From a virus, in the IMG/VR virus record IMGVR_UViG_3300037484_000104, positions 28,399-92,398 of that record: a stretch of DNA of 64,000 nt; one strand, written 5' to 3'. Every line of letters starts with the position of its first letter. The stretch's first letter is position 1. The notes under the pieces are model-generated. The model saw only the letters and a program-made list of their open reading frames with translations, searched no databases and had not been told where the DNA came from. The position numbers and the translations under genes are program-made. This document shows positions 1,866-46,711 of the stretch, one piece after another.

Positions 1866-2813
1866 TTATTTGTTTGATATTGGTGTATACTCATCTATTG
1901 AGTTATACTTCAAATTATTAACAAAGGATAGGATTTTAGGTTCTCCATCTCTCACCTTTAGTAGATGCATATATATCATGTTTGTTACAGGCCAATGACT
2001 GCTACCATATGTCTTTAAGCCCAAAATCTCAGGTCTGTGCAACACTATGACATAATCGGAGCCTTGATATACACTATCAGATGAAGATAAATCTCTCCTT
2101 TGTGGAAAATGGAGTAGAGGATTATTAATTCGATCTGTTGACTCTATTTCCCGGTTTAACTGTGATAATTGAATTATCGTTGTTAAGCCAATTTTCTTTT
2201 GTTGAATAAATACCCTTTGGAGTTCTACTATTGTTTCACGTTCACCTTGTCCAGGATTAGGTTTTAGTAGTAACGTATGATCTAATATTATTATTAACCA
2301 TTTATCCTTACTAACTAATTCTCTAAATACTTCAATAGTGTTACTTACTTCAACAACTGAACCCGGTGTATCTACATAGTAGACAGGGTAATTTCTTATT
2401 TCTTTTGACTCATGTACTACTTTATTAAAATCGTAATCTGAGAGTGGTTTCTCTGCTGTATATAATTCAGAAGTTGTCTTTTTGAGTTTATAGGATAGCT
2501 TTCTACCCACAACTTTACTAGAAAGCATTTCTAAACTGAATGATAATACTACAAAATCTATATCTGGATTCAAATCAAATAAATCTGTTTCTAAAGAATT
2601 GACAAATGCCGATTTGCCTGCACCTGATATACCACATGCTGTTATAACTACATTTGGTTCTAATCCTCCATTGCAACTATCATTAAATTTCTTCCATTTA
2701 GTTTTCAAACTTCTGCTAATTCCTTTACGTCTATCATCAATGTATGAAACTATATCATCTGTTGCAACAGATATGTGTTTAAATGTTAAGCTTTTATTCG
2801 AGGGTGTTTCCAT
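1866..2813 (-). CDS. dnaB: DnaB-like replicative helicase
   Basis: Walker A GISGAGKS, FSLEM, IILDH, LSQLNR, KVRDGE: DnaB H1-H4 motifs. Confidence 0.92.
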   Translation of the reverse strand: METPSNKSLTFKHISVATDDIVSYIDDRRKGISRSLKTKWKKFNDSCNGGLEPNVVITACGISGAGKSAFVNSLETDLFDLNPDIDFVVLSFSLEMLSSKVVGRKLSYKLKKTTSELYTAEKPLSDYDFNKVVHESKEIRNYPVYYVDTPGSVVEVSNTIEVFRELVSKDKWLIIILDHTLLLKPNPGQGERETIVELQRVFIQQKKIGLTTIIQLSQLNREIESTDRINNPLLHFPQRRDLSSSDSVYQGSDYVIVLHRPEILGLKTYGSSHWPVTNMIYMHLLKVRDGEPKILSFVNNLKYNSIDEYTPISNK

Positions 2814-3381
2814 ATCCTAGATCCTCACTATTAGTAAGAGAGTCAATAGTTGATTCAGTTAGAGCTTGTTCGTATATTTTCCACTCTTCACTAATTAACC
2901 ATTTAGATAATCTCTTGAAATAAGACATCTTTCCCTCTTTCCGTTTGAGCGCTATCTCATATCTCAGACACTCTAGAATATGTTGATGTATAAAGTACTT
3001 ATTCTTTGTAATTTTTGAATAAGACATTTTACAACGCTTTAAATCGTTTCTTAAAAAATCTTTAGTTCCATCAGGTCTAATAACTGACACTGGAAACACT
3101 TGTACCAATTCGTCGAAAAAATCACCATTTGCAATTATTCGTAAAAAGTTAGGCCCTAAAGTTATTTTAGAAGGATCGTATTCATTTAAACTATTTTGAT
3201 TTGTTACGAATTCTAATAAATTAAACCTATCAAACAATCTTTTTTTCTCTTCACTATTATACAAAAATAGGTATTTAGAGACTAGATCATATTGTTTATC
3301 ATAGATTAATTGTAATACAACAAATTCATCAACTTTAATAAGGTTGTTTATTAATGAATTTACATCTACTTGTATTAACAT
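2794..3381 (-). CDS. putative replication initiator/helicase-loader-like protein
   Basis: FFDELVQVFP...KRLSKWL..EEWK C-terminal pattern; overlaps the start of dnaB. Confidence 0.5.
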   Translation of the reverse strand: MLIQVDVNSLINNLIKVDEFVVLQLIYDKQYDLVSKYLFLYNSEEKKRLFDRFNLLEFVTNQNSLNEYDPSKITLGPNFLRIIANGDFFDELVQVFPVSVIRPDGTKDFLRNDLKRCKMSYSKITKNKYFIHQHILECLRYEIALKRKEGKMSYFKRLSKWLISEEWKIYEQALTESTIDSLTNSEDLGYGNTLE

Positions 3382-8838: not shown

Positions 8839-11029
8839 GTAGAATTTTTATAGTATTTTTAACTTTTAAATACTTTTTTGTCTTAGTTTCCGGGATAGGA
8901 GTTACCCACTTCTTTGTTTTCTTAAATGGACTTCTTAAAGGATTATACCTTCTAATCCATTTAGTAAATTCCCAGATATTCTCACTAATTATAGTGGAGG
9001 TAGTTTCGTCAAATCTCTTCTTTATAAGAGGGGATAGTTGTTCTACACCTTTCTTAATAACTTTAGGTATTACCACTATTTTGGCCTCTAGGAAGCCTTT
9101 GGTTGGATTATCTTTCTTTTCTGGTATAAGTATACCATCTGGAACGATCTCTTCACTACGGTGCTTAAATAGGGCAAAATCAAGGACTTCTGTAACAGAT
9201 GCTTGAAATTTATGATAAGATCTATTAATAGCTTTCTCTAATGTTGGAGAAATTACTGTAGATACAAATCCTGCTTTACCACTTCCATCTGGAACATGTT
9301 TTTCTATTGTTACTACAAATTCTTTAAAGTTTTCTTTTGATATCTTATTAGAGTTACCACTGTGCTTTTTACGTAATGACTTCTTCTGATTTTTAGTTTT
9401 TATCTTTTTAGTAATTACTAAGTCAGAAGTGACTGGTACAAATACCATTTCATATGTAGGCGGTATTCCCTTTATCGGATCAGCTTTGACAATTACTATA
9501 TTATTAAATTGACCTAAACATTTTTCACCATAAATAGGATCAAAATCTTGTGTAACTTCATTCCATTCCCAATCAATAATTGGACTACCTTTGATTAAAT
9601 CTGTTCTTTTTTCAAAAGGAATTACTTCTATAATAGTCTTTATGTTATTGTGATTAGAAGATACCTTCTTTGGAGATTTCTCTCTAGGGATGTATATTCC
9701 ATTATCACCATTTGCTGGAGTAAACGACTTACCATATTTTACTTTCTGTAGCTTCCTTGCTTCAGATTTAGTAAAGAATTTGTATTTATATGGAGATTTT
9801 TTAACTAACTTATCAGCTAATCTCCAATATACTCTTTTAATCTTATCTCCAATAATTGTTCCTACCCAAACTAATCTATTTTCAGATAAATCAGTTTTAG
9901 TTACTTTACTTGGACTCCACTTATACGGAGCTTTAGGAGGAAAAGATGTAGCAGTAAGTGCTCTTTCTGATTTTGTTATTAGTTGAACTTTTAATATACC
10001 AATTTTTTGCTTCTGTTTTTTTTGAGTAACAGGGTACATCTTGTCTTCTTTACCTTGAATATATAATTCATTACCCAGTAAATCCTTAACTGGGACTATT
10101 GACTTTTTTTTAGTCATAATTTCTTTATGTTGCGATTTGTATAATTCCGAATCTACTAACTTATCTGGAATGTCTTTTTTAATTGTTCCAGAATTTACTA
10201 ATTCCATCCATACTTGTTTACGAAGTACTTCATCTGTCATTAGTACATCTTCTTTTTTATAGTCTGTGAAGATATAGACTTGATCTTTTGAATTTACGTG
10301 ATCAAATGGAGTAGCATACTTCGAGTTATTCTCTATTTCAAATTCACATCCACCACCAGTGATTCTATATAGTGCTCCATTTATCTCTAATATTTTTCCC
10401 ATTCGTCTGATATGACGATTAGATTCATCTGGATATATATCTTGATTTAAAGTCATATTAGTTAATAACTCTTCAGCTTGATCAGTACTATATATACCAC
10501 TAGATCTATAGATATTGTCTTTATTATAACCAGGAACTATAATTTGTCTAATAGGATGAGATGAATGAACTCCCATTCCAATCCATTTATTTGAATCACT
10601 TTTTATTCCTTCTACATAGAAGTAATAGAGTTTCATCTTTGATATTTTTTGATTGATTGTTTCATAACTATAATCTTTATAACCTCTCCCATATCTATTT
10701 TTGGATAGTTTATATGACCAATAACTCCATTTTACAGTAATAGGAAATCGAAATGAACAATTATTACGTAATTCTGCCGTTTTTGTTGGAATATTTATAT
10801 ATACAATAGTGTCATCATGAACTACTCTAACATATCCAATCTTAAGCATTTGTTTAATTCGATCTATTGTTAAATCTTCAAATCCTTTTGTCTTAGTCCA
10901 ATATATAGTTTTAACTATTCCTTCAGTTTTAACTAAGGATATATACTCGAACTCAAAATTATCTGTAAATTCATCAATAGTTGGAAGTCGATAATCATCG
11001 AACTTATTCCAGTTTACTATTTTTTCCAT
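8831..11029 (-). CDS. large Lys-rich hypothetical protein
   Basis: 732 aa ORF; N-terminal YRLPTIDEFTDNFEFEY resembles ORF 34267. Confidence 0.65.
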   Translation of the reverse strand: MEKIVNWNKFDDYRLPTIDEFTDNFEFEYISLVKTEGIVKTIYWTKTKGFEDLTIDRIKQMLKIGYVRVVHDDTIVYINIPTKTAELRNNCSFRFPITVKWSYWSYKLSKNRYGRGYKDYSYETINQKISKMKLYYFYVEGIKSDSNKWIGMGVHSSHPIRQIIVPGYNKDNIYRSSGIYSTDQAEELLTNMTLNQDIYPDESNRHIRRMGKILEINGALYRITGGGCEFEIENNSKYATPFDHVNSKDQVYIFTDYKKEDVLMTDEVLRKQVWMELVNSGTIKKDIPDKLVDSELYKSQHKEIMTKKKSIVPVKDLLGNELYIQGKEDKMYPVTQKKQKQKIGILKVQLITKSERALTATSFPPKAPYKWSPSKVTKTDLSENRLVWVGTIIGDKIKRVYWRLADKLVKKSPYKYKFFTKSEARKLQKVKYGKSFTPANGDNGIYIPREKSPKKVSSNHNNIKTIIEVIPFEKRTDLIKGSPIIDWEWNEVTQDFDPIYGEKCLGQFNNIVIVKADPIKGIPPTYEMVFVPVTSDLVITKKIKTKNQKKSLRKKHSGNSNKISKENFKEFVVTIEKHVPDGSGKAGFVSTVISPTLEKAINRSYHKFQASVTEVLDFALFKHRSEEIVPDGILIPEKKDNPTKGFLEAKIVVIPKVIKKGVEQLSPLIKKRFDETTSTIISENIWEFTKWIRRYNPLRSPFKKTKKWVTPIPETKTKKYLKVKNTIKILHE

Positions 11030-11552
11030 TTTTGATATTCTTTAAATACCATTCGTACCCAAAGATTCTACCTTCTAGTTTAAGTTTGGCTTTTCTTCTT
11101 TGTTTACAATTTAATTTCTTTTCCATTGTTGATTTTCTATGTATAAAACAATTTGAATTTTCTGGTTGACAAATATTTGGACTTAATTTAACTAATTTAT
11201 CAAATTTAATACAAGCCGATCCCTCTCTGTTTAAGTATTTACAGTCATTACAATTTGTATCTATTAATTGACACTCATGTGATTCAAATTGTTTAGATTT
11301 TTGTAATAGATCTTTATGGATAGGTTTCCATATAAATGGAGTCCAATAGCTTATTCTTATTGCTATTGTATCTATACTTAATAATACTCCAGATTCACAA
11401 CAATATTTAGATGGAATCCAATATTTATGAAAAAGATTATTAAAGAATTGTTGTCTATCTGGTTTTTCTTTTATCCACTTTTCATAGAATTCACTTAAAT
11501 TATCTGAAAAACATGCTTGGATAAAGTAATCTTTTTCGGATAACTGTTTCAT
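11004..11552 (-). CDS. Cys-rich hypothetical protein
   Basis: CQLIDTNCNDCKYL...C...CQPENSNCFIHR. Confidence 0.6.
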   Translation of the reverse strand: MKQLSEKDYFIQACFSDNLSEFYEKWIKEKPDRQQFFNNLFHKYWIPSKYCCESGVLLSIDTIAIRISYWTPFIWKPIHKDLLQKSKQFESHECQLIDTNCNDCKYLNREGSACIKFDKLVKLSPNICQPENSNCFIHRKSTMEKKLNCKQRRKAKLKLEGRIFGYEWYLKNIKNGKNSKLE

Positions 11553-11553
11553 A

Positions 11554-12306
11554 TTACCAATTTATTATTGATTTGTTTTGACTCTCTAATATTTGATTAG
11601 TCTTAGAGAAATGTTTACATCCAAAGAATCCTGTATAAGCACTGAATGGACTTGGATGTGCTGCTTCCAATATGTAGTGTTTAGATTGATCTATTAATCT
11701 TTTACACTTTTGAGCATGTTTACCCCATAGTATAAATACTATTCCTGATTCACTAAATTGCGATATTCTTTGTATAGTAACATCAGTTAGTATATTCCAT
11801 CCTATATCTAAATGAGAATTAGGTTGTCCTTCTCTTACTGTAAGACTAGTGTTAAGTAGTAATACTCCTTGTTCAGCCCATCTAGTTAAATCACCATGTT
11901 CTGGTATAGGTGTGGCTAAATCACTATCTAATTCCTTAAATATGTTCTGTAATGATGGAGGTATTTTACAACCTTCCTGTACACTAAATGCTAAACCATG
12001 TGCTTGATTAGGACCATGATATGGATCCTGACCTATTATAACAACTTTTATCTTTTCAAATGGAGTTGTATTATAAGCATTAAATATATCTGTAAAATAA
12101 GGATATATCTGCTTACATGGAGTAGTTCTAGTATCATATTTAGGATTATGAGGTAGTAAGTTAGATAATTTGATATCTATAATTGGTTGCCAATTTAACT
12201 CTTCTTTTAATGCTTTCATTGTAGCACTAAAATAAGGAGACTCGAAGTAATCCTTTAATAAAGAGTACCACGAGTCTTCTATTTGTAATATATCAACTTT
12301 TTTCAT
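11554..12306 (-). CDS. ung: uracil-DNA glycosylase family 1
   Basis: GQDPYH, AHGLAFSV, PPSLQNI, GVLLLN, HPSPFS. Confidence 0.96.
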   Translation of the reverse strand: MKKVDILQIEDSWYSLLKDYFESPYFSATMKALKEELNWQPIIDIKLSNLLPHNPKYDTRTTPCKQIYPYFTDIFNAYNTTPFEKIKVVIIGQDPYHGPNQAHGLAFSVQEGCKIPPSLQNIFKELDSDLATPIPEHGDLTRWAEQGVLLLNTSLTVREGQPNSHLDIGWNILTDVTIQRISQFSESGIVFILWGKHAQKCKRLIDQSKHYILEAAHPSPFSAYTGFFGCKHFSKTNQILESQNKSIINW

Positions 12307-12631: not shown

Positions 12632-13636
12632 TTAAAAATCCTCCAATATAATTGGTGTATTAGTTGTATAACCTCTTTTTTTATCAAGAAGTTGAAATTG
12701 CATCATAGGAACTTCTGGAGTAAATCCAAATGCCCTACTCATTTCGTTATATCCTATTACAGCTCCGTTGATACGAACTTTAGGACTAACAATGTATCTA
12801 TGCCAATGACCTATCCAAGCCATATCGAAAGGCATTACAGCATTTTCACGATAAGACCATTTATTTAAACCTACTTCTATTCCACCTATTCCTCCTTGAT
12901 AATTAAAATGATTACCATGAGAGAATTTGTTTATCTTACCATAAATATTATAGTAGATATATGGAGATTCGGATATAATGAATTCTACGTTTGTAAACCC
13001 AGCATTCTTGAAATAGTCTGATAAATGTTGATATATAATTGCTTCAAATGAAGTATCGAATGTATTCTTAAAGTGATTCTTTTTAGTAGTTCTACTATGG
13101 TTACCTATGGAACAAGGTATTACTATATTTACTAGATCACCCATTTCAGCGATAGTCTTAATACCTCTAGTCAGTAATTGCTCTACTAAAAGAGTGGCCC
13201 TTACAGGAGTCATTGAATTTGTTTCAATTAATTCATCGTGAATCCATCCAGAGATGAAGTCACCTACTAAATGAAGAACTAGATTGTCGATCTTAATTCC
13301 TGCTCTACGTTGAAGTCTTATCATATAGATAAGTCTAGTGAAATATCTTTCTAACCGTAATTCAGCAATTTCTGGATTATAGGAATTAAGTTTATTAGTA
13401 ATATTAGGATTAACTATCTCATCAATATGAACATCTCCTAATTGTGTAATTACTGTACACTCTTCTTTATAGGATCTATTAGCTTTGATTACATAGGAAT
13501 CTAAATTAGTTAAATTCTCTATTTTAATAGATTCTATTACAGATCTAGCAGCTTTAAGTTCATCTACTTCCTTCTGTAATATTCCTATTTGTTTTGTCTG
13601 TTTTTTATCTACTAATAGTTTTTTTGATTTTGCCAT
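12632..13636 (-). CDS. calcineurin-like metallophosphoesterase
   Basis: GDVH, VGDF, GNHSR, SHG, GHWH motifs. Confidence 0.85.
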   Translation of the reverse strand: MAKSKKLLVDKKQTKQIGILQKEVDELKAARSVIESIKIENLTNLDSYVIKANRSYKEECTVITQLGDVHIDEIVNPNITNKLNSYNPEIAELRLERYFTRLIYMIRLQRRAGIKIDNLVLHLVGDFISGWIHDELIETNSMTPVRATLLVEQLLTRGIKTIAEMGDLVNIVIPCSIGNHSRTTKKNHFKNTFDTSFEAIIYQHLSDYFKNAGFTNVEFIISESPYIYYNIYGKINKFSHGNHFNYQGGIGGIEVGLNKWSYRENAVMPFDMAWIGHWHRYIVSPKVRINGAVIGYNEMSRAFGFTPEVPMMQFQLLDKKRGYTTNTPIILEDF

Positions 13637-18164: not shown

Positions 18165-18602
18165 TTATTTAAAATTTAAAACGTTTTTGATTTTAGTGAT
18201 AATTGTTAATAAATTTGATTTTTTAGGTAGATTTGACTCTTCCCCAAGAGTAAATATTTTTTCGAACTTATTTAATTTTCCGATTAAAATTGGATCATCT
18301 ACTTCAATTAAACTTGAAGCAAACTCAATGTTTTCAATACTATTTTGATTTTTGTAATTGATATGTGTTTTGATCCATACATTCGCTAGAGGGGATGATG
18401 TATTACCCCATTTACCTTTGTCACACATCGCTTTCGATGATGCGTAGTTTTTCTTATAAGGTTTAATAAAGATAACTTGTTGTTTTTTATCTCCATCTAT
18501 TACCTCATACACCAATTTGATACCTCCCATTTTGGTATCCTTTATTATTTTACTACCAGAAATTTCGGGAATATCTTGACTAATTATTCTATATTTTGAC
18601 AT
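18165..18602 (-). CDS. hypothetical protein
   Basis: 145 aa ORF. Confidence 0.55.
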   Translation of the reverse strand: MSKYRIISQDIPEISGSKIIKDTKMGGIKLVYEVIDGDKKQQVIFIKPYKKNYASSKAMCDKGKWGNTSSPLANVWIKTHINYKNQNSIENIEFASSLIEVDDPILIGKLNKFEKIFTLGEESNLPKKSNLLTIITKIKNVLNFK

Positions 18603-18620
18603 ATTAATTAGATTAAAGAT

Positions 18621-19828
18621 AAAAAAGTAAGCAGTCCTTTAACAGCAGAAGCCAATTATTGGTCGTTTCTGAGAATTCTGTAACTATTGCTAATTTTGTA
18701 ATTCTACTGCTTATTTGTAATATACGAATGAGCTGTCTATTTTTATATAGACTTACTAGTTTATTGTTTACGATATTTAAATCGTTATAAATACACTATA
18801 TCCTTATGGTTTTCTAAACCTATCACTTATGAGATGATTAAGTCAAGTGTTACGGTATTATTAGCCATATCCGTAGGCCACTTATCTTCTAACTATATGT
18901 CTCCATATTTCACTATGAAGCTGATTAATTCATGTACAACCTTACAGTTGTGTTGCAACTAATCAATAATTATTGATAAATACAAGAAAGTAAATTTGTT
19001 ATTTTTGGTAATATTGTTTGGGAAGGTATTTCTGTAACTCAGAATGAATTACATGGAGATAATGTCTCATATACATTGGATTGTATAGGACGTAAATATC
19101 GACCTTAATTTACACATTTCATTGTATATTGAATTCTATACAACTTCCTTTCAACCTGTCGTAATTGGAATATTCGTACAGTATGTGACTCCAGTTCATT
19201 TTCTTAAGTACTGGTAACAATCAGGTGTTTATACCCATTTCCCAGGGACACCACAAACTGAATTATCTTTTAATACACCAGTGATTTGACACTGAATCTG
19301 AGACCACCTATTTACGATAGGCTCCACGTTCTACGTAGATGTATACTAAAATTACTTCTATAAAATAACCGACTTCTTCTACCGCATTTGTTTGTCAAAG
19401 GGTTTTACTCTAAAGAACACCTACATTTTATGTTAATTTGTCTTCGTTAGCCTTTACACAACCATCTGTTGGGAATCTCACCCTATCGCTAATCATAATG
19501 TTATACAAGAGGTATTATAAACAAATAGTATTAGTATTTGAATTATGTACTAGAAGGAGTTTATCATAGAAATATGAATAACTTCTATAATAAACTCGTT
19601 AATGTAAGATAGTCAAACTGTGAACGAATCACTTTTCTCATTACTGATAGTTTGAACTGAAGTACACTATCTTCTAATAATAGGTCTTTATAATACGAAG
19701 GATCTGCTACAATCCTGACGACTTTAGAGTAATAACTTAGCGCTATGAGTTACCTCGTAGTTATTATTGTTCTCTAGTGAGTTTAATTGTAAGTTGTGTT
19801 GTGTACATTTAAGGATGTACGTTCTCCT
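18621..19828 (-). ncRNA. candidate large structured ncRNA (~1.2 kb); strand inferred from flanking genes
   Basis: no ORF >=60 aa in six frames; many tandem hairpins, several with T-loop-like loops. Confidence 0.5.
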
Positions 19829-19984
19829 TTAGTTTTTATAACCTGGAATTTTTGACATAAATTTATACTTATCCAATAGTTCTCTGGCTTCTTTTCTTGA
19901 CAATCGTTGTTTAGACTCTTTATTTCTAAATCTATTACAAACCTTGTCAATATTTTTTGATGTATAATTTCTATTTGTTATCAT
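19829..19984 (-). CDS. small basic hypothetical protein (51 aa)
   Basis: hand-translated MITNRNYTSKNIDKVCNRFRNKESKQRLSRKEARELL... Confidence 0.4.
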   Translation of the reverse strand: MITNRNYTSKNIDKVCNRFRNKESKQRLSRKEARELLDKYKFMSKIPGYKN

Positions 19985-20089
19985 ATTTCCTCCCAAGCTT
20001 CAAATTTCAATGTTCTTAGTTGACGTATAGTGAACATACTAATCAATATTGATGTAACCGTAGTTCCCTGTGCTTTGTAGATTTTTCCA

Positions 20090-21517
20090 TTAAATTGGAA
20101 AAGAAAGATTCTCATAATATTTTCGTATTATTCGTTTGTAACTATCTCTTTGAAAATCTCCTGATATAGGGATAATTTCATCAATATATTCAGAACTGCT
20201 AGTTTTTGAATTGATGATAATCCTATATTGTTCAAGTGTTAAAACAAATCTGTCATAAGATAGTCCTAGATAATCTAAGACATCTTGATTAAGATGTACC
20301 AGAAGAATTAATTTGTCGTTTGATGATACTAGTAAGCATGATTGTATAGTATTAATATGATTAAATGTGTTTTCAGCATCACTTGTCATAATATATCCAA
20401 ACTTACCATGTATAGTATCTTCTTTTCTACCATCAAAGAATATGTGTTGATTGAAGTCATTAGAAAGATCAATCTGTAAATTATCTTCTTGAAATAGACT
20501 AGATGAAGGTAATTCATCACTTAATAGTCTGCCAACAGATCCTTTTACATACTTTTCAGGTCTCTCATAAGATGTTATACCACATTCTTCAACTCTGCCA
20601 AAAGTTGTAGTGTAAGGTATTTTTAACCTATTTAATGTCCTCTCTATCTTTTGAGGTAGTGTAGAGTTTAGAATTATTAACTGTTGTAATTTGGGAAATA
20701 ACTTCTTTATTTTTGATTTAAGATAGTATTTTCTAATAAACCACAGTTTTAAATCCTTTAGAATGTTGTTTTTGAAATCCTCAACATTCTCAATGTATGT
20801 CTTATAGAGAAGTACGAAATCAAAAGCTGTAATTACTACAACTTCTGGCTCATACTCCTCTAACTCATTTCTTAAGCCATAAGTATCTTCATTATTGGGT
20901 ATTACTATTGTTATACCACATGTAAGTGGTAGTAATAGTCCAATTAGATAATTATAGGCAAATCCCATTTGTGCTAAGTAAATAGTGCTAGTATCGAATA
21001 TTTTGTTTCTTCCAAGTAATACCATAGTATCAAGAATTTTATCATGATCTATATATATTGGATTTAATGCTCTTGGTGAAATTACTAATATTGATGTATT
21101 TGTTTCAGATAAATCTCCATCTTCTAATGAAAATTGTATAAATGTGTCTATCCAAAGTATGTTACATAGAATGCTAGAATTATTATATACAGTAGCATTA
21201 TCCGTAATTACTAATTGAATATGAGATCTGGGTATTATTACAAGTAGGTCTTCAATATCTGATTTTATATCAAATAGTGCTAACCTATGCCTACTAAATA
21301 GTATTGCAAAGAATGTAATTATCCACTCAACACTGTTATTAGCAACTAATAAAATCCTAATAGGAGATTCATATGCTTTGTTTAGTATTTCAGCAAGTGC
21401 TTTAGACTTTCCAAATATCTCCCTATAAGTATAACTTTTATCTCTCTGTATCACAAAGATATTTTCTAAATAGAGTTCAAAGAACGCTATAATTTTTTTA
21501 ATCAAGTTGCTTTTCAT
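20090..21517 (-). CDS. AMP-binding (long-chain acyl-CoA ligase-like) protein, degenerate
   Basis: YTYREI, NNSVEWIITFFAI, TFGRVEECG (A5-like), GSVGR, DGRKEDTI (A8), YKRIIRK (A10); P-loop degenerate. Confidence 0.7.
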   Translation of the reverse strand: MKSNLIKKIIAFFELYLENIFVIQRDKSYTYREIFGKSKALAEILNKAYESPIRILLVANNSVEWIITFFAILFSRHRLALFDIKSDIEDLLVIIPRSHIQLVITDNATVYNNSSILCNILWIDTFIQFSLEDGDLSETNTSILVISPRALNPIYIDHDKILDTMVLLGRNKIFDTSTIYLAQMGFAYNYLIGLLLPLTCGITIVIPNNEDTYGLRNELEEYEPEVVVITAFDFVLLYKTYIENVEDFKNNILKDLKLWFIRKYYLKSKIKKLFPKLQQLIILNSTLPQKIERTLNRLKIPYTTTFGRVEECGITSYERPEKYVKGSVGRLLSDELPSSSLFQEDNLQIDLSNDFNQHIFFDGRKEDTIHGKFGYIMTSDAENTFNHINTIQSCLLVSSNDKLILLVHLNQDVLDYLGLSYDRFVLTLEQYRIIINSKTSSSEYIDEIIPISGDFQRDSYKRIIRKYYENLSFPI

Positions 21518-25373: not shown

Positions 25374-25730
25374 TTATGATATTGTTACACTAGCACCAAG
25401 CTCTTCAAGTTCTGTTTTTAAAGCTTTAGCTTCAACTTCCGAGATGTTTTCCCTTAATGTTACTGGAACAGTATCAATTACTGCCTTTGCCTGCATTAAA
25501 GTTATATCAGAATTACTGTTTTTCCAATACTTTATAACATCCATTTTTTTAGGACCTGAGTCATTTAGAATAACGTTAAATGTGGATTTTACATCTTCTT
25601 TAACTTCTTCTACTGCAGCTACTGCTACTGTTGGAGCAACGTATCCTAATAATTTTAGTTCTTCAACTAATTTACGAGCATCTTCTAAAGATAATCCATC
25701 TATTGCTTTTGCTATTTCTTTTGGTGTCAT
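25374..25730 (-). CDS. rplL: 50S ribosomal protein bL12 (L7/L12), full length
   Basis: NTD LSLEDARKLVEELK, Ala-rich hinge AVAAVEE, CTD FNVILNDSGPKKMDVIK...AKAVID.VP..L.ENISEVEA..LK.ELEELGASV. Confidence 0.9.
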   Translation of the reverse strand: MTPKEIAKAIDGLSLEDARKLVEELKLLGYVAPTVAVAAVEEVKEDVKSTFNVILNDSGPKKMDVIKYWKNSNSDITLMQAKAVIDTVPVTLRENISEVEAKALKTELEELGASVTIS

Positions 25731-30362: not shown

Positions 30363-30923
30363 TTATTCCGTTTTGTCTTCGATTGGCAAGTCATTTGCGT
30401 TACCTTTTGGTGTTTTAATAAATGCGGCATCAGGTATGCGATTTAATTCACGGTTTATATATACATCTGCATCACCATTTAGTGGTACAAATACGCGGAT
30501 AACTGTACGAACCATAAGTTCACCTTTTCTTTTTCCTTGGGTAATTTTTAATGGTTTATCGTTTTCATCAAAAATATGATGGGCAGGAACTTCACGTTCT
30601 GCAATATTTCCGATTAAACCAAATGCTCCTGGATCAATTTTTAAGCCGGTTTGTAATTTTTCGAACGATCCTTGTTCAATTGCATCAGTTAATGCGTCGA
30701 ACATTATTTTGTCAATAGAACTGTTGATTATTTTTGAGTAAGCTCTATCTTGTAAGATTGTATTAACACGACCAAATACTGTTCCAAGTGCTAACCATTC
30801 TACTACAAAGTAGTTGGCTTTACCGTCTTTTGTTGTATAAGGTTTTGTTAAATCGGGTTCTTTTGTTTCGTCGTTTTTAGATTTTACAATCTTTAAACCA
30901 TATTCTACATCGTTTTTTAACAT
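30363..30923 (-). CDS. hypothetical early protein
   Basis: 186 aa ORF. Confidence 0.65.
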   Translation of the reverse strand: MLKNDVEYGLKIVKSKNDETKEPDLTKPYTTKDGKANYFVVEWLALGTVFGRVNTILQDRAYSKIINSSIDKIMFDALTDAIEQGSFEKLQTGLKIDPGAFGLIGNIAEREVPAHHIFDENDKPLKITQGKRKGELMVRTVIRVFVPLNGDADVYINRELNRIPDAAFIKTPKGNANDLPIEDKTE

Positions 30924-32418
30924 TGTTGTTCAGATTAAGTTAATGTTTATGTTTATTTGTTGGTTCTGCTGTTATTGCAGACCATGTCATCAGTCCGAGC
31001 ATTACAAGCACTACTAGTAGAAGACATAGTATGTGTTTGGATTGAGGATGTTCGCTAGTGATGATATTGTAGAACACCAGACATGAAAATGCTGATATTA
31101 CAACTAGAATGATGTAATTTTGTAGTTTGTGTAATTTCATATATGTAATGTTTTGATTAGTTACTATGAAATAAAAGAGAGCTTAGATGTGCTAAATCGC
31201 CGGTAAGCGTAGCGTATATACACCAATCCTTCTAAGCTGTCTAACCTGTGTTTTAATTAGGTATTGTCACAATGTGTGATTCATACCAAATAAGTTCTTC
31301 ATCTAATGTAATACACCAATCTGATGCACTGCATTTATCTGCTTCAGCAATTGTTGCTTCCAGATAATTAAAGAGTTTGTCAAATAATTCATATCCATAT
31401 AATGTATGGAATGTTAGAACACTTGGTGTTGAGTTTTGACCAAATGCAATACATTGTAAATGAAAAGACTTTAATGGAATGTAATTGAGAATAGTAATTT
31501 GATATTTCATGATTCTTTAGTTATGATTAATAAATCCTCCATTCATTCTAATCCAAAGGAAACGATATTTTATAAGGTCTTTGATAAGGTCTTACATATA
31601 TACCATTTATTACAGTTTGAGGAGCAATAACTACACATGTTATATAATGGTAATCATACATTGTATGTTCACTACTTTTAATTACATGCTCTTCTATTGT
31701 TTTTCTGATGATTCTGAAACCTCGAATGTTTTGATTATCCATTGTTTATATTATTAGGTTAGACTTACCCATCTACAATTTACAGAGGCTTTGGACTCTC
31801 AAGTTATTACACTTCGCTGTATTAGTAATTGGATTTCGGTATTTGAGAATAACCTACTTTCCTAGTTGTGTCCGCACTTCCTCCTATTCGCAACATGCAA
31901 GGACTTATCAGTTTATTGTGTTCTCTTATCACTCAACTGGCAGAAAGACATAAATTGGTTTCATATGATAGTCTTAATTTATTACACACAAATCACTAGT
32001 GTGGACACAAGAACCTTTCTAGTAAAGGAAATTGATGTATCAGCACCAATATTACCAAGGGTTATAACTAGAATGATAGAACACAGAGCTTCCTAATGTG
32101 AGGGAAGCTATATAAGTATGGTAATAATGAGAAAATAGAGGATATTATGACATAGATAATTGACCGACAGTCAGTATCACACAACTACACTCTCATGTAA
32201 TCGCTACACATTCATAATAATCCTCTAAATCATCAATTACTAACCTATTTAACTACAATTCGAGGCAATGTCCCAGGGGGACGGCGCAGTGAGGGGGTTT
32301 ATCAACCCTATTAAATGTTAATACTAATCTCTTAATGAGATTAATGCACAATTGTTCCCTAATCGGTCACAATTCTATGTAGCAATGTCATGAAGACTAA
32401 AACAAAAGGGATGCACTG

Positions 32419-32673
32419 TTATAGTGCAAACCCCAATCTGTAACGTTCGTGACCGTCATGAGTACCTGTATGCTCATAAGTTATCTCTTGCCCCTTCAAT
32501 GACAACATAGTAGCCAATGGCATATCAGCACTAGTGCCAATAATACCAGTAACACCATTAGATAACGATATGATACAGAAACCTTTAACATAACGGAAAC
32601 CATTAATAACAGCTTTGCCTGCGTTAGCAGGAGAATTAGTTTTAGCCATTACGAAATATTTTAGGTTAGACAA
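32419..32673 (-). CDS. hypothetical protein, first leftward gene
   Basis: 84 aa ORF next to the strand switch. Confidence 0.5.
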   Translation of the reverse strand: MSNLKYFVMAKTNSPANAGKAVINGFRYVKGFCIISLSNGVTGIIGTSADMPLATMLSLKGQEITYEHTGTHDGHERYRLGFAL

Positions 32674-32822
32674 TGTGACAGGGGACTTCCCTCTCGCTTG
32701 CGTATGGGGGGTGATCGACTACGGTAAGTTAAACCCTCAAATATACCCAATAATTTGTAAATTTTATAAAAAATTTTATTAGAAAAATTAGTATAATTTT
32801 GTTAAAATTCTTAGTGATTTTT
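32674..32822. other. strand-switch region, possible origin/terminus
   Basis: divergent gene blocks; G-rich motifs (GGGGACTTCCC, TGGGGGGTGATCGAC) followed by an AT-only tract. Confidence 0.5.
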
Positions 32823-32850
32823 GTAACCCTATTAATTACCTTCCGTATAA
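32823..32850 (+). promoter_or_regulatory. putative promoter GTAAC-N16-CGTATAA
   Basis: ECF-sigma-like AAC/CGT geometry; 20 nt before ATG 32871. Confidence 0.55.
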
Positions 32851-32870
32851 CGACTTATAAAACGTATCAT

Positions 32871-33092
32871 ATGGATAGAATTAAGTTTAACAAATTATGT
32901 GATAGAGTTCAAGAATTAAACGATCTTAGAGATAGTGATACAATTAGACCTAATAGTAAGGTTTGTATCTGTATGATTATAGATAGATGTATGTGTGAGA
33001 TTACTGAGGAATTAGTTGCTTCAGGATATACATTAAATAAGAAGAAATTAGACACCCTAGAATTAGGACCATCCGATATCGCATGTCAATGA
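32871..33092 (+). CDS. hypothetical protein (start revised to MDRIKF)
   Basis: ATG at 32871 follows the promoter motif. Confidence 0.5.
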   Translation: MDRIKFNKLCDRVQELNDLRDSDTIRPNSKVCICMIIDRCMCEITEELVASGYTLNKKKLDTLELGPSDIACQ

Positions 33093-33101
33093 TAGAGCGG
33101 A

Positions 33102-33282
33102 TTAGAAGTTGGGTTATAGGAATGATAAAATAGTCATTCTATGTTGTCCCCAATAGTGTCGATAATAAAGTTAGTATAAAGATCTGGCCCTCCACCAGTA
33201 AGGTAAATGTAGCTAAGAGAGGGGTAGGACTAGTCGAAAGATGATTTACGACAGATACGAAATCTAACTTTAAACTTCTAAG
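33102..33282 (+). ncRNA. structured intergenic RNA element
   Basis: nested stems TTAGAAGTT/AACTTCTAA, AAAGTTAG/CTAACTTT, ATCTG/CAGAT, CCCTC/GAGGG. Confidence 0.45.
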
Positions 33283-33378
33283 TGCTTACTGACAGGTAGG
33301 GCATTATAGGGGAAGATTACACAAACTAATTAAATAATTACAAACCTAATTACTGAATAATATTTTGTGACATGAAGT

Positions 33379-33406
33379 GGAACTTATCCGAAGGATAAAC
33401 GTATAA
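33379..33406 (+). promoter_or_regulatory. putative promoter GGAAC-N16-CGTATAA
   Basis: same spacing as 32823; 19 nt before ATG 33426. Confidence 0.55.
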
Positions 33407-33616
33407 GATCTAAACATTAAGATATATGTTAAATAAATTACGATATTGGATTATATCCAAACTACTGACATACGATGAAAGGTATTTATTATACGATGCT
33501 CTAGAAACTAGAATTATATTTTTAGTGTCTGAGAGAGTTAAAAATAAATCATTGGATTATCAAAATACTGGTGACGATATAGGTAGTCTATACAAATTAA
33601 GAAGAAATTTAATGCT

Positions 33617-34174
33617 ATGGGGAAATTAGTTAATATAGAGGGAATAGAGTTAGAACAATGTGTTCTAGATAATGATGAATTAGATGGTCCAATTGTTAGA
33701 GAGGTACTCGGTATGTACGAAGATAATTCAGAGTATATCCTATCAGATCCTTTAGAAGATGATATGGATTATATTACAACTACCCCAGAAGATGTACAGT
33801 TTATCAATGAGTATATAGAATCTGAGTTAGATAAACAACCTGATAATGTAGAGGAAGATATACATATACAGGATTTATTAGAACAAGAATCTGAAGTATT
33901 TCCGAGTTGTGTGGGATTTATACAGTGGGTGCAACACAGTGAATTTGCAGATGCTATTCCTCAATATGAGGATTATGTAAGAGAATATAAGAAAGAACTT
34001 AGAGAATGGTACTTTAATAAACACCCCCAATATGCTAGAAATAGTAATGGTGATGTTGCTTTTTATAATGGTCAACCGGTAACTAACAATGACTTAGAAT
34101 TGGGAGATAAGGTAATGGATATGTATAGTAATTCTATAGACAATGACAAAGATTACGAAAGTGATAATAACTAG
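33617..34174 (+). CDS. acidic hypothetical protein
   Basis: 185 aa, D/E-rich. Confidence 0.6.
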   Translation: MGKLVNIEGIELEQCVLDNDELDGPIVREVLGMYEDNSEYILSDPLEDDMDYITTTPEDVQFINEYIESELDKQPDNVEEDIHIQDLLEQESEVFPSCVGFIQWVQHSEFADAIPQYEDYVREYKKELREWYFNKHPQYARNSNGDVAFYNGQPVTNNDLELGDKVMDMYSNSIDNDKDYESDNN

Positions 34175-45238: not shown

Positions 45239-46711
45239 ATGCAAGATACCGTATTAAATAATCTTCAACTCTTTAGGTCCAAATATTTTTCTGGACTTGT
45301 AGACGAGAATATGCTTTCTAATGCTTTAGTTACGGAGCCTCATAGAGTGTCTAATGTTTTATCCTATATTTTCGGACGTTATGAAAATACTACTGTTGAC
45401 TTTTTGACAGCAGGTTTAGGTAAAACAATCATCACTGAAAATCGTCAGTATGAGTGGCCTGTAATGATTGAAAGCGAAAAAGCAATTTCAATTAAACAAG
45501 CTAGATGGCAGGGTTCCGCTGTAGTATCAACTGATACTCCTGGTCAAAATGGTTCTCCTATTCAATTGTGGTTAGGTGAAAAATGGTTTGGTCCTGGTGC
45601 TATCCTCGAATTTGATGATAAAGAATATCAAGTAATTGTACAGGGTACTCCATATCAAGATGGTAGTGATTGGGTTTATACAGTTGTTGTGGCTGATGGT
45701 CAGTCTACATCATATATTCTTCCATCATTATTAGCTGCTGGAAAACAAGTATCACGTGCTGGTTCTGCTTATCCTGAATACAGTGAAGAAGCTGATATCG
45801 TGAACTATCAAACACCGTTTAAATTACGTAACCAATTAACTACTATGCGTTTATCGTATGATATTACTGGTTCTGCTTTATCCGATTTGATGGTAATAGC
45901 AATGCGTGATCCTAAAACTAAAAGGACTTCTTATTTATGGAGTGACTATCAAGAATGGATTGCCTTACGTCAATGGTACAATACTATTGAATACCAGTTG
46001 GTATACGATAAGTACAGTAGCAATGCTGATGGTAGCACAGACTTAGTTGGTTCTAATGGACGTCCTATTTATAGAGGCTCTGGTTTGTTACAACAGATCG
46101 CTCCTTCTAATCGTCAATCATATACTACACTTACTGCAGACTTAGTAGAAGACTTCTTATTCAATCTTGCCTATAATGTACTTGGTAATAGCGAACGTAA
46201 ATTCGTAGCTCTTACAGGTGAAATGGGTATGAAAGAATTCGATCGTATATTGAGAGCCAAGGCTTCTTCTTATACACTCGTAGATACTAAATTTGTAACT
46301 GGTAGTGGTCAAGACCTTACTTTAGGTGGACAGTTTACAACTTATAAGATGCTCAATGGTATTGAATTAACATTGAAACATTTCCCACTTTACGATAATA
46401 TCGTTAAGAACAGAAAGTTGCATCCAATTAGTGGTAAACCACTTGAATCCTATCGTATGACTTTCATTGATTTTGGTAACCGTGATGGTGAATCCAATAT
46501 CCAAAAAGTTGTTAAAAAGGGTCGTGAAATGGTTATGTGGCATACAGGTGGGTCTGCAGCTCCTGGAACAGGATTTGCAAAATCTATCAATACACTCCGT
46601 TCTAATGCAAAAGACGGATACCAAGTTCACTTCTTATCAGAACAAGGTATTATGATGAAAGATCCTACTTCGGCAGGTGAACTCTATGTATCTAGTGAAT
46701 ATGGAATTTAA
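45239..46711 (+). CDS. major capsid protein (HK97 fold, crAss type)
   Basis: 490 aa; DENMLSNAL, YEWPV, ESYRMTFIDF, DGYQVHFLSEQGI; followed by a terminator. Confidence 0.9.
   Translation: MQDTVLNNLQLFRSKYFSGLVDENMLSNALVTEPHRVSNVLSYIFGRYENTTVDFLTAGLGKTIITENRQYEWPVMIESEKAISIKQARWQGSAVVSTDTPGQNGSPIQLWLGEKWFGPGAILEFDDKEYQVIVQGTPYQDGSDWVYTVVVADGQSTSYILPSLLAAGKQVSRAGSAYPEYSEEADIVNYQTPFKLRNQLTTMRLSYDITGSALSDLMVIAMRDPKTKRTSYLWSDYQEWIALRQWYNTIEYQLVYDKYSSNADGSTDLVGSNGRPIYRGSGLLQQIAPSNRQSYTTLTADLVEDFLFNLAYNVLGNSERKFVALTGEMGMKEFDRILRAKASSYTLVDTKFVTGSGQDLTLGGQFTTYKMLNGIELTLKHFPLYDNIVKNRKLHPISGKPLESYRMTFIDFGNRDGESNIQKVVKKGREMVMWHTGGSAAPGTGFAKSINTLRSNAKDGYQVHFLSEQGIMMKDPTSAGELYVSSEYGI

Follow-up and report, generated by a model that had tools for sequence, protein, structure and literature searches.

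Beyond ribosomal RNA, RNase P RNA and introns, few large structured RNAs are known in bacteria and phages, and OLE, GOLLD and ROOL have each given rise to studies of structure and function. ROOL and GOLLD have been shown by cryo-EM to form RNA-only assemblies (bioRxiv 10.1101/2024.12.08.627333). Their lengths are roughly 0.6–0.8 kb. A second body of knowledge concerns T-loops, which are always engaged in long-range contacts or ligand binding and which combine with pseudoknots as 'T-loop-PK' domains (PMC2615604). Strings of this type are familiar: GGGUGAAAUUCCC occurs in FMN aptamers and UAAGGGUGAAA in bacterial RNase P. For crAss-like phages, a globally important group, the literature that we searched holds no paper on a large RNA of the present kind. 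The non-coding RNAs of the UG27 reverse transcriptases carried by some crAss-like phages are unrelated in context to our element, and a description of long non-coding regions in Yutin et al. 2021 was not borne out.

The locus described here resembles ROOL and GOLLD in being long, ORF-free and phage-encoded, with a conserved multi-domain structure, one or more pseudoknots, conserved single-stranded motifs and no known function. It differs from them in that neither model is matched by any of the five homologues, in its length of 1.2–1.5 kb, which exceeds that of OLE, GOLLD or ROOL, in its hosts, which are environmental crAss-like phages, and in its neighbours, which encode an ANL-type protein and a 145-aa protein rather than tRNAs. 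Its likeness to the T-loop cores of the FMN and cobalamin riboswitches and of RNase P is limited to a hairpin, GGG-UGA(A/G)AUU-CCC; their models are unmatched, and the surrounding helices and motifs are unrelated. Finally, like Rho-independent terminators and riboswitch expression platforms, it ends in a G+C-containing stem followed directly by U5-6 just upstream of an ORF, but the stem closes an insert of 70–150 nt and not a short loop. The evidence presented below supports the view that the element is a new large structured RNA belonging to no Rfam 15 family; its transcription is inferred.

A region without coding capacity in a crAss-like phage

The DNA analysed, hereafter the window, makes up the right-hand 64 kb of an IMG/VR virus record of 92.4 kb (IMGVR_UViG_3300037484_000104). 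The major head protein encoded at 45239-46711 is ~60–64% identical to its counterparts in gut crAss-like phages, which identifies the source virus as a crAss-like phage. A search of sequencing runs found the phage DNA in sediment metagenomes, in two DNA runs, one of them probably the source; their contigs yielded nothing beyond the close relative described below. From position 1 to ~30.9 kb every gene lies on the minus strand, and this block includes genes for DnaB, ThyX, UDG, an SLT lysozyme and a bL12-like protein; we infer that these are early/replication genes. The element and its two neighbours within the block are as follows.

18603..19830, minus strand: whole conserved ORF-free element, 1228 nt, read 5' to 3' from 19830; bounds set by alignment to the relative and by mapping of the element
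20090..21517, minus strand: AMP-binding (ANL superfamily) protein, 475 aa (PF00501, E 2e-15), upstream neighbour
18165..18602, minus strand: 145-aa protein of unknown family, starting at an ATG at 18602, downstream neighbour

The initial annotation had singled out 18621-19828 as ~1.2 kb free of ORFs on both strands. Both claims held, the span almost exactly, since the conserved element runs from 19830 to 18603 on the minus strand. The gap is flanked by the minus-strand genes 20090-21517 and 18165-18602, and the longest table-11 ORF inside 18603-19828 on either strand is 43 aa; two 55-aa ORFs (19783-19950 and 19829-19996) touch only the upper edge of the gap. Reassigning stop codons (TAG=Q, TGA=W, TAA=Q) opened no long frame, and one minus-strand frame across the gap contains 31 stops. 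Thus, 18603-19830 has no coding capacity under any code tested. A hidden or decayed gene or paralogue was rejected as well, as comparison of six-frame peptides and of the DNA with the masked genome returned noise only. No iterons or tandem repeats, the marks of an origin, were found at the element, and no tRNA or tmRNA was found in the 64-kb window.

The AMP-binding protein has distant PDB relatives among adenylation domains. In the AMP-binding proteins of these phages the Pfam match is confined to the N-terminal part, and the consensus of their alignment (A1), inspected by eye, shows no canonical Ser/Thr/Gly-rich phosphate-binding loop while a GRxxD-like motif is retained; judged on sequence alone, they may be diverged or non-catalytic ANL proteins. 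The 145-aa protein belongs to no family in Pfam or PHROG and had no usable Atlas match, and its AF2 model (pLDDT 77) gave no convincing fold match with Foldseek (best E 1.2) or VIA-align (best Z 4.2). Among GenBank phages there was neither a DNA match to the element region nor a protein match to the AMP-binding, 145-aa and 724-aa neighbours.

Two other features of the window were observed. A 118-aa phage protein encoded at 25374-25730 on the minus strand, 5.5 kb upstream of the RNA element, clearly contains the C-terminal domain of ribosomal L7/L12 (PF00542, E 4e-19). Where the minus- and plus-strand gene blocks diverge, 30923-33617 is a further 2.7 kb without an ORF of at least 100 aa; within it, the tract ~32301-32600 is 99.5% identical to the close relative described below, its surroundings being much less so, and the region could be an origin, a promoter region or another RNA.

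Homologous elements in five phage lineages

Searches of IMG/VR with three queries, namely the AMP-binding protein alignment, the conserved core motif and the 724-aa protein encoded upstream, recovered four further lineages, giving five in total (A to E, the window belonging to lineage A) and seven sequences, two pairs of which are near-identical, all on environmental crAss-like contigs. Gene order is constant in each lineage: the AMP-binding gene, directly upstream in 5/5 lineages, an ORF-free stretch, and the homologue of the 145-aa protein. The stretch measures 1228 nt here and 1264–1509 nt in the four other lineages. Between lineages, the AMP-binding proteins are 29–38% and the 145-aa homologues 33–50% identical. 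Conserved islands are collinear along its full length, their order and the total length being kept in all lineages, and the sequence between the islands is conserved only poorly from one lineage to the next. With a covariance model of the core (R1), exactly one copy per genome was found, at 80–98 bits. The whole gene block is collinear among these phages.

In bacterial and archaeal genomes, a motif scan gave 42 matches, all in unrelated coding sequence. A loose core motif matched viral contigs at least 117 times, mostly by chance, and one real new lineage was sieved out of these; a TTATGA...T-loop pattern scan gave only four additional chance matches, and a metagenome scan with the AMP-binding alignment a single truncated contig. 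In one homologous locus (L172, IMGVR_UViG_3300014204_000140), a mechanically called 263-aa ORF with a GTG start (2303-3094, minus strand) overlaps the 3' stem and U-run of the RNA; the true homologue of the 145-aa gene starts there at ATG 2788 and encodes 161 aa, so gene callers may hide part of the RNA at this locus.

The closest relative of the window (IMGVR_UViG_3300037483_000076, G001) is about 87% identical genome-wide. The flanking genes are 80–90% identical and 18900-19800 is 97–100% identical, the longest such tract in the window. The two genomes are mosaics, with other 97–100% tracts inside genes (e.g. 10101-10800, 11101-11600 and 13301-13600) and 21% of the window unaligned. Since such tracts also lie in coding regions, the near-identity of the element to G001 could partly reflect recombination. 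Identity starts abruptly at ~19830, upstream of which 143 nt here stand against 304 unrelated nt in G001. This extra DNA between the AMP-binding gene and the RNA (19842-20115) is peculiar to lineage A; a 44-aa ORF in it (19981-20115) is conserved in the close relative (L002 7394-7528), the unrelated 143/304-nt segment comes after it, and in the other lineages the RNA begins at the stop codon of the AMP-binding gene. The few substitutions between the two copies of the element cluster in one place.

18735..18845, minus strand: variable patch of small hairpins, in which ~22 substitutions relative to the 99%-identical relative cluster

Placed on the single-sequence MFE fold of this genome, the G001 substitutions included 5 compensatory doubles where 0.34 were expected (0/1000 re-placements). 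The folding energy was retained in the relative (-61.7 vs -60.6), while random mutants reached -52.9 +/- 4.2, a loss of ~8 kcal/mol.

A T-loop-type hairpin core crossed by a long-range helix

One part of the element comprises a core domain and a distant strand that pairs with it.

19426..19509, minus strand: core domain, consisting of AACA-UUAUGA, outer stem, T-loop-type hairpin, 3' strand of the long-range helix and UAAGG ... CGAAGA
19488-19491 with 19448-19451, minus strand: core outer stem (alignment A5)
19471-19483, minus strand: T-loop-type hairpin GGG-UGAGAUU-CCC (alignment A5)
19792..19799, minus strand: 5' strand of the long-range helix, ACACAACU, beginning 10 nt after a conserved AAUG and pairing with 19456-19463
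19456-19463, minus strand: 3' strand of the long-range helix, inside the core just 5' of UAAGG

Firstly, the seven pairs of the core are formed in all 42 cells of alignment A5 (100%), and three of the seven are changed on both sides, where slid controls gave none. The loop, UGAGA/UGAAA(UU) on a 3-bp G-C stem, is invariant in the five lineages and fits the U-(G/U)-N-R-A signature of T-loops; in lineage E the hairpin stem carries a compensatory change from G-C to A-U. The core hairpin is thus of the T-loop type at the level of its sequence signature, its three-dimensional conformation being inferred.

Secondly, the 8-bp long-range helix pairs in 40 of 40 cells over the five lineages, with covariation in seven of its eight pairs. 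When the strands were dealt to the wrong lineages, a mean of 23.5 and a maximum of 28 of the 40 cells paired. The strand itself varies by lineage (ACACAACU, AUAUAAGA, AUAAGUAU, GUAAAGUA and GUAAAGCA), each version being accompanied by its exact complement, and the helix lies in every lineage at a fixed offset from the conserved AAUG, with a span of 315–366 nt (about 340). Because the 3' strand is located inside the loop closed by the core outer stem, the two helices cross and form a pseudoknot. In duplex energy compared with shuffles the helix is weak alone (P 0–0.22 per lineage); the case for it rests on position and covariation and not on energy.

T-loops always contact or recognise something (PMC2615604); hence we infer that the invariant hairpin, together with the equally invariant single-stranded strings AACA, UUAUGA, UAAGG and CGAAGA around it, is the most likely functional site. 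The AUG within the UUAUGA of the core opens frames of 22–41 codons (19426-19498, minus strand), which encode similar peptides in lineages A, B and D.

Further conserved hairpins and the two ends of the element

Downstream of the core, conserved structure consists of local hairpins and a single-stranded motif, and each end of the element bears its own conserved signal.

19224..19336, minus strand: mid-domain of four hairpins (alignment A8, lineages A and D)
19326-19336, minus strand: ACGU/ACGU hairpin of the mid-domain
19307-19321, minus strand: CCUAU-CGUAA-AUAGG hairpin; this CGUAA hairpin covaries in lineage B too
19278-19295, minus strand: UCAGUG-UCAAAU-CACUGG hairpin of the mid-domain
19224-19252, minus strand: GGUGU-CCC...GGG-ACACC hairpin of the mid-domain
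19141..19181, minus strand: hairpin CUGUACGAAU/AUUACGACAG, with two covarying pairs between lineages A and D, then single-stranded motif GGUUGAAAGGAAGUUG (19141-19156)
19800..19830, minus strand: 5' conserved motif AAAGGAGAACG-UACAUCC-UUAAAUG-UAC, at which identity to the close relative sets in sharply
18621..18714, minus strand: 3' terminal stem (18706-18714 with 18627-18635) enclosing ~70 nt, and U-run (18621-18626); terminator-like

In the mid-domain, 97% of the cells of 23 pairs are paired, and seven pairs are changed on both sides, against 0–1 in slid controls. The single-stranded motif that follows, GGUUGAWAGRAAGUU, is retained in 5/5 lineages.

At the 5' end, the conserved motif is 93% identical over 30 nt to that of lineage B, while the adjacent proteins are only ~34% identical; it (AAAGGAGAACG...UUAAAUG) recurs in lineage D and, in part, in E. 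It touches or overlaps the AMP-binding gene's stop codon in lineages B and D. Neither a promoter nor the 5' end of the RNA was identified, and it is possible that the RNA is excised from an operon transcript.

At the 3' end, the nine pairs of the stem (alignment A7) are 96% paired, with one C-G to U-A double change and two G-U pairs. The stem and a run of U5-6 are kept in 5/5 lineages, the arms enclosing 70–150 nt, and together they end 18–30 nt before the next gene in four lineages (18 nt here) and ~260 nt before it in lineage C. This arrangement meets the stem/U-tract criterion for an intrinsic terminator; termination activity is inferred. As the stem closes a 70–150-nt insert and not a short loop, a simple terminator scan does not call it. 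It is the only conserved stem with a U-run in the element, of which it forms the 3' end, and no internal terminator or promoter that is conserved was seen.

The structured strand and whole-element statistics

Several observations show that the structured strand is the minus strand of the window, which is also the gene-sense strand. It has the lower MFE in 7/7 sequences; the excess of compensatory changes is stronger on it than on the opposite strand; and the G-U pairs of the 3' stem and of the core stem fit only this strand, on which the U-run follows the stem.

We then considered pairs of lineages, folding one sequence alone and classifying the substitutions of the other lineage in reliably aligned columns. 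Between lineages A and D, 12 compensatory doubles were observed where 2.9 were expected (P<0.001), and between C and E, 8 where 2.6–2.8 were expected (P=0.002–0.004). Compensatory doubles are thus 3–15 times as frequent as under the null in the three independent comparisons, that with G001 included. Applied to three coding segments of comparable length, the test revealed no excess (9 vs 8.2, 6 vs 4.4 and 4 vs 5.9). Because only seven sequences from five lineages are available, and two pairs of these are near-identical, helix-level statistical support is lacking for most of the 1.2 kb, and most of the 3' 800 nt has support at the level of hairpins only.

Local folding energy was uninformative. 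Sliding 200-nt MFE z-scores on the minus strand ranged from about -0.04 to -4.8; on neither strand were they stronger than in the neighbouring genes, and by energy alone the region would not stand out.

Comparison with known RNA families

At the gathering threshold, Rfam 15 gave no match in the 64-kb window; within 18300-20200 there were three noise matches only (E 1–8), and on four loci with homologues nothing at E≤1. GOLLD, ROOL, OLE, HEARO, raiA and the other Rfam families were therefore rejected, their covariance models being unmatched by the element or its homologues. The FMN riboswitch (RF00050), the cobalamin riboswitch and bacterial RNase P RNA gave no match at E≤10 here or at E≤1 in the homologues. 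Group I and group II introns were also rejected, as no Rfam intron model matched and the flanking genes are each complete: the AMP-binding homologues are 470–518 aa long, with or without the extra spacer, and the 145-aa homologues begin at their own ATG.

These results bear on the remaining claims of the initial annotation, which had proposed a candidate giant ncRNA on the grounds of hairpin density. The inverted repeats that it listed are present, and five proved to be conserved, covarying helices: 18625-18635/18706-18716, which is the conserved 3' stem, CAGTG/CACTG at 19279-19294, CCTAT/ATAGG at 19307-19321, GGTGT/ACACC (19224-19252) and the T-loop-like GGG-TGAGATT-CCC at 19471-19483. A second T-loop-like hairpin, CATA-GTGAAA-TATG at 18904-18917, failed, as it is conserved in the closest relative only. 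That the region is denser in hairpins than chance would allow is not supported by folding energy, and the shuffle-folding check that had been proposed was run and proved uninformative. The proposed Rfam check (GOLLD, ROOL, OLE, group I/II) was run without a match, and on whether the RNA is of a known family or new, which had been left open, no Rfam 15 family matches. The proposal of a giant ncRNA is supported, in the absence of expression data, on the basis of covariation in five lineages and not of hairpin density.

Discussion

Base pairing conserved across five lineages, on the sense strand and with a single copy of the core per genome, is demonstrated here. More than 500 nt of non-coding sequence with conserved long-range, pseudoknotted structure place the element among RNAs of the large ornate kind; that it is made as a discrete, stable RNA is an inference. 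We favour the reading that the region is the gene of an undescribed large structured ncRNA, ~1.23 kb long here and 1.26–1.5 kb in relatives, to which, lacking expression data, we assign a probability of about 0.6. In this view, the minus strand of the window would be transcribed along with the surrounding leftward early/replication genes, and the RNA would begin at or near the conserved AAGGAGAA...AAAUG motif. A 5' domain of ~380 nt would be locked by the long-range pseudoknot helix onto the T-loop-type hairpin core, and the series of covarying hairpins and conserved single-stranded motifs that follows would complete a compact multi-domain fold. The conserved stem and U-run would provide the 3' end, a leaky terminator directly ahead of the following gene. 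The RNA would act in trans during infection, as a folded RNA or an RNP, with the T-loop/pseudoknot core as the putative place at which a partner RNA, ligand or protein docks. The ~260 nt that separate the 3' stem from the next gene in lineage C fit an RNA with an end of its own and not a leader.

Several points speak against this reading. The sequencing-run search for the ORF-free element returned no RNA run with the sequence, only the two DNA runs; the local folding energy is ordinary; and the 5' end and promoter are unidentified. In addition, the terminator-like stem stands 18–30 nt from a start codon in four lineages, as is typical of leaders that regulate in cis. The inference that the 5' domain and the 3' two-thirds form one molecule rests only on their contiguity and on the absence of conserved internal signals.

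The main rival, which remains possible, is that the element is a giant cis-acting leader (5' UTR) of the 145-aa gene and of the operon behind it, in which the 3' stem would be a conditional terminator and read-through would be set by what the T-loop/pseudoknot core binds. In its favour, in four of the five lineages the stem and U5-6 lie 18–30 nt before the ATG, so that a promoter does not fit between them, the gene that follows is in every case the 145-aa homologue, and T-loops typically serve riboswitches as modules that dock a ligand or an RNA (PMC2615604). Against it, a sensing domain of 1.2–1.5 kb would be several times the size of any known leader. Moreover, ~260 AT-rich nt intervene between stem and gene in lineage C, the terminator arms enclose 70–150 nt, which is unusual for an expression platform, and no pairing that could act as an alternative antiterminator was identified. 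Adjacency by itself says little, because the gene block is wholly collinear in these phages.

A composite of several shorter structured RNAs or UTR elements lying side by side, for instance a ~400-nt 5' RNA, small hairpins and a terminator, appears unlikely. It would account for helix-level covariation being confined to local hairpins and one helix of ~340-nt span, for the lack of any supported helix joining the 5' domain to the 3' 800 nt, and for the poor conservation between islands across lineages. It is opposed by the absence of a conserved internal terminator or promoter, the sole conserved stem with a U-run being at the 3' end, and by the order of the islands and the total length, which are kept in all lineages.

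The two remaining alternatives are both very unlikely. A string of translated micro-ORFs, such as the frames opened by the core UUAUGA AUG, is suggested by the conservation of this AUG and the next codons in three lineages (A, B and D), but in lineage C the frame ends after five codons and in lineage E the AUG is missing at this place, substitutions are not biased towards third positions and pair across stems, and the longest open frame has 43 codons. That the element acts at the level of DNA, as a replication origin or a site of packaging or recombination, or is a spacer without function that was exchanged recently, could be argued from the location within a replication-gene block (DnaB, ThyX and UDG nearby) and from the mosaic nature of the two closest genomes, which share other near-identical tracts, but there are no iterons or tandem repeats, covariation is kept between lineages whose proteins are 29–38% identical, the G-U pairs and the asymmetry in energy point to one strand, and a spacer would keep neither collinear islands nor an 8-bp helix with seven covarying pairs.

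Returning to the large structured ncRNA, its defined bounds and conserved helices open the element directly to tests by in vitro transcription, probing and cryo-EM. A bolder version of this reading, which we hold to be less likely than not, is that of a single discrete RNA machine of 1.2–1.5 kb built around the T-loop/pseudoknot core. Were it true, no larger structured RNA, ribosomal RNA aside, would be known from any phage or bacterium, and the molecule would work as a ribozyme, as an RNA multimer or as a platform on which tRNA or components of the ribosome dock; in these crAss-like phages, it might act with the always-adjacent ANL-type protein and 145-aa protein.
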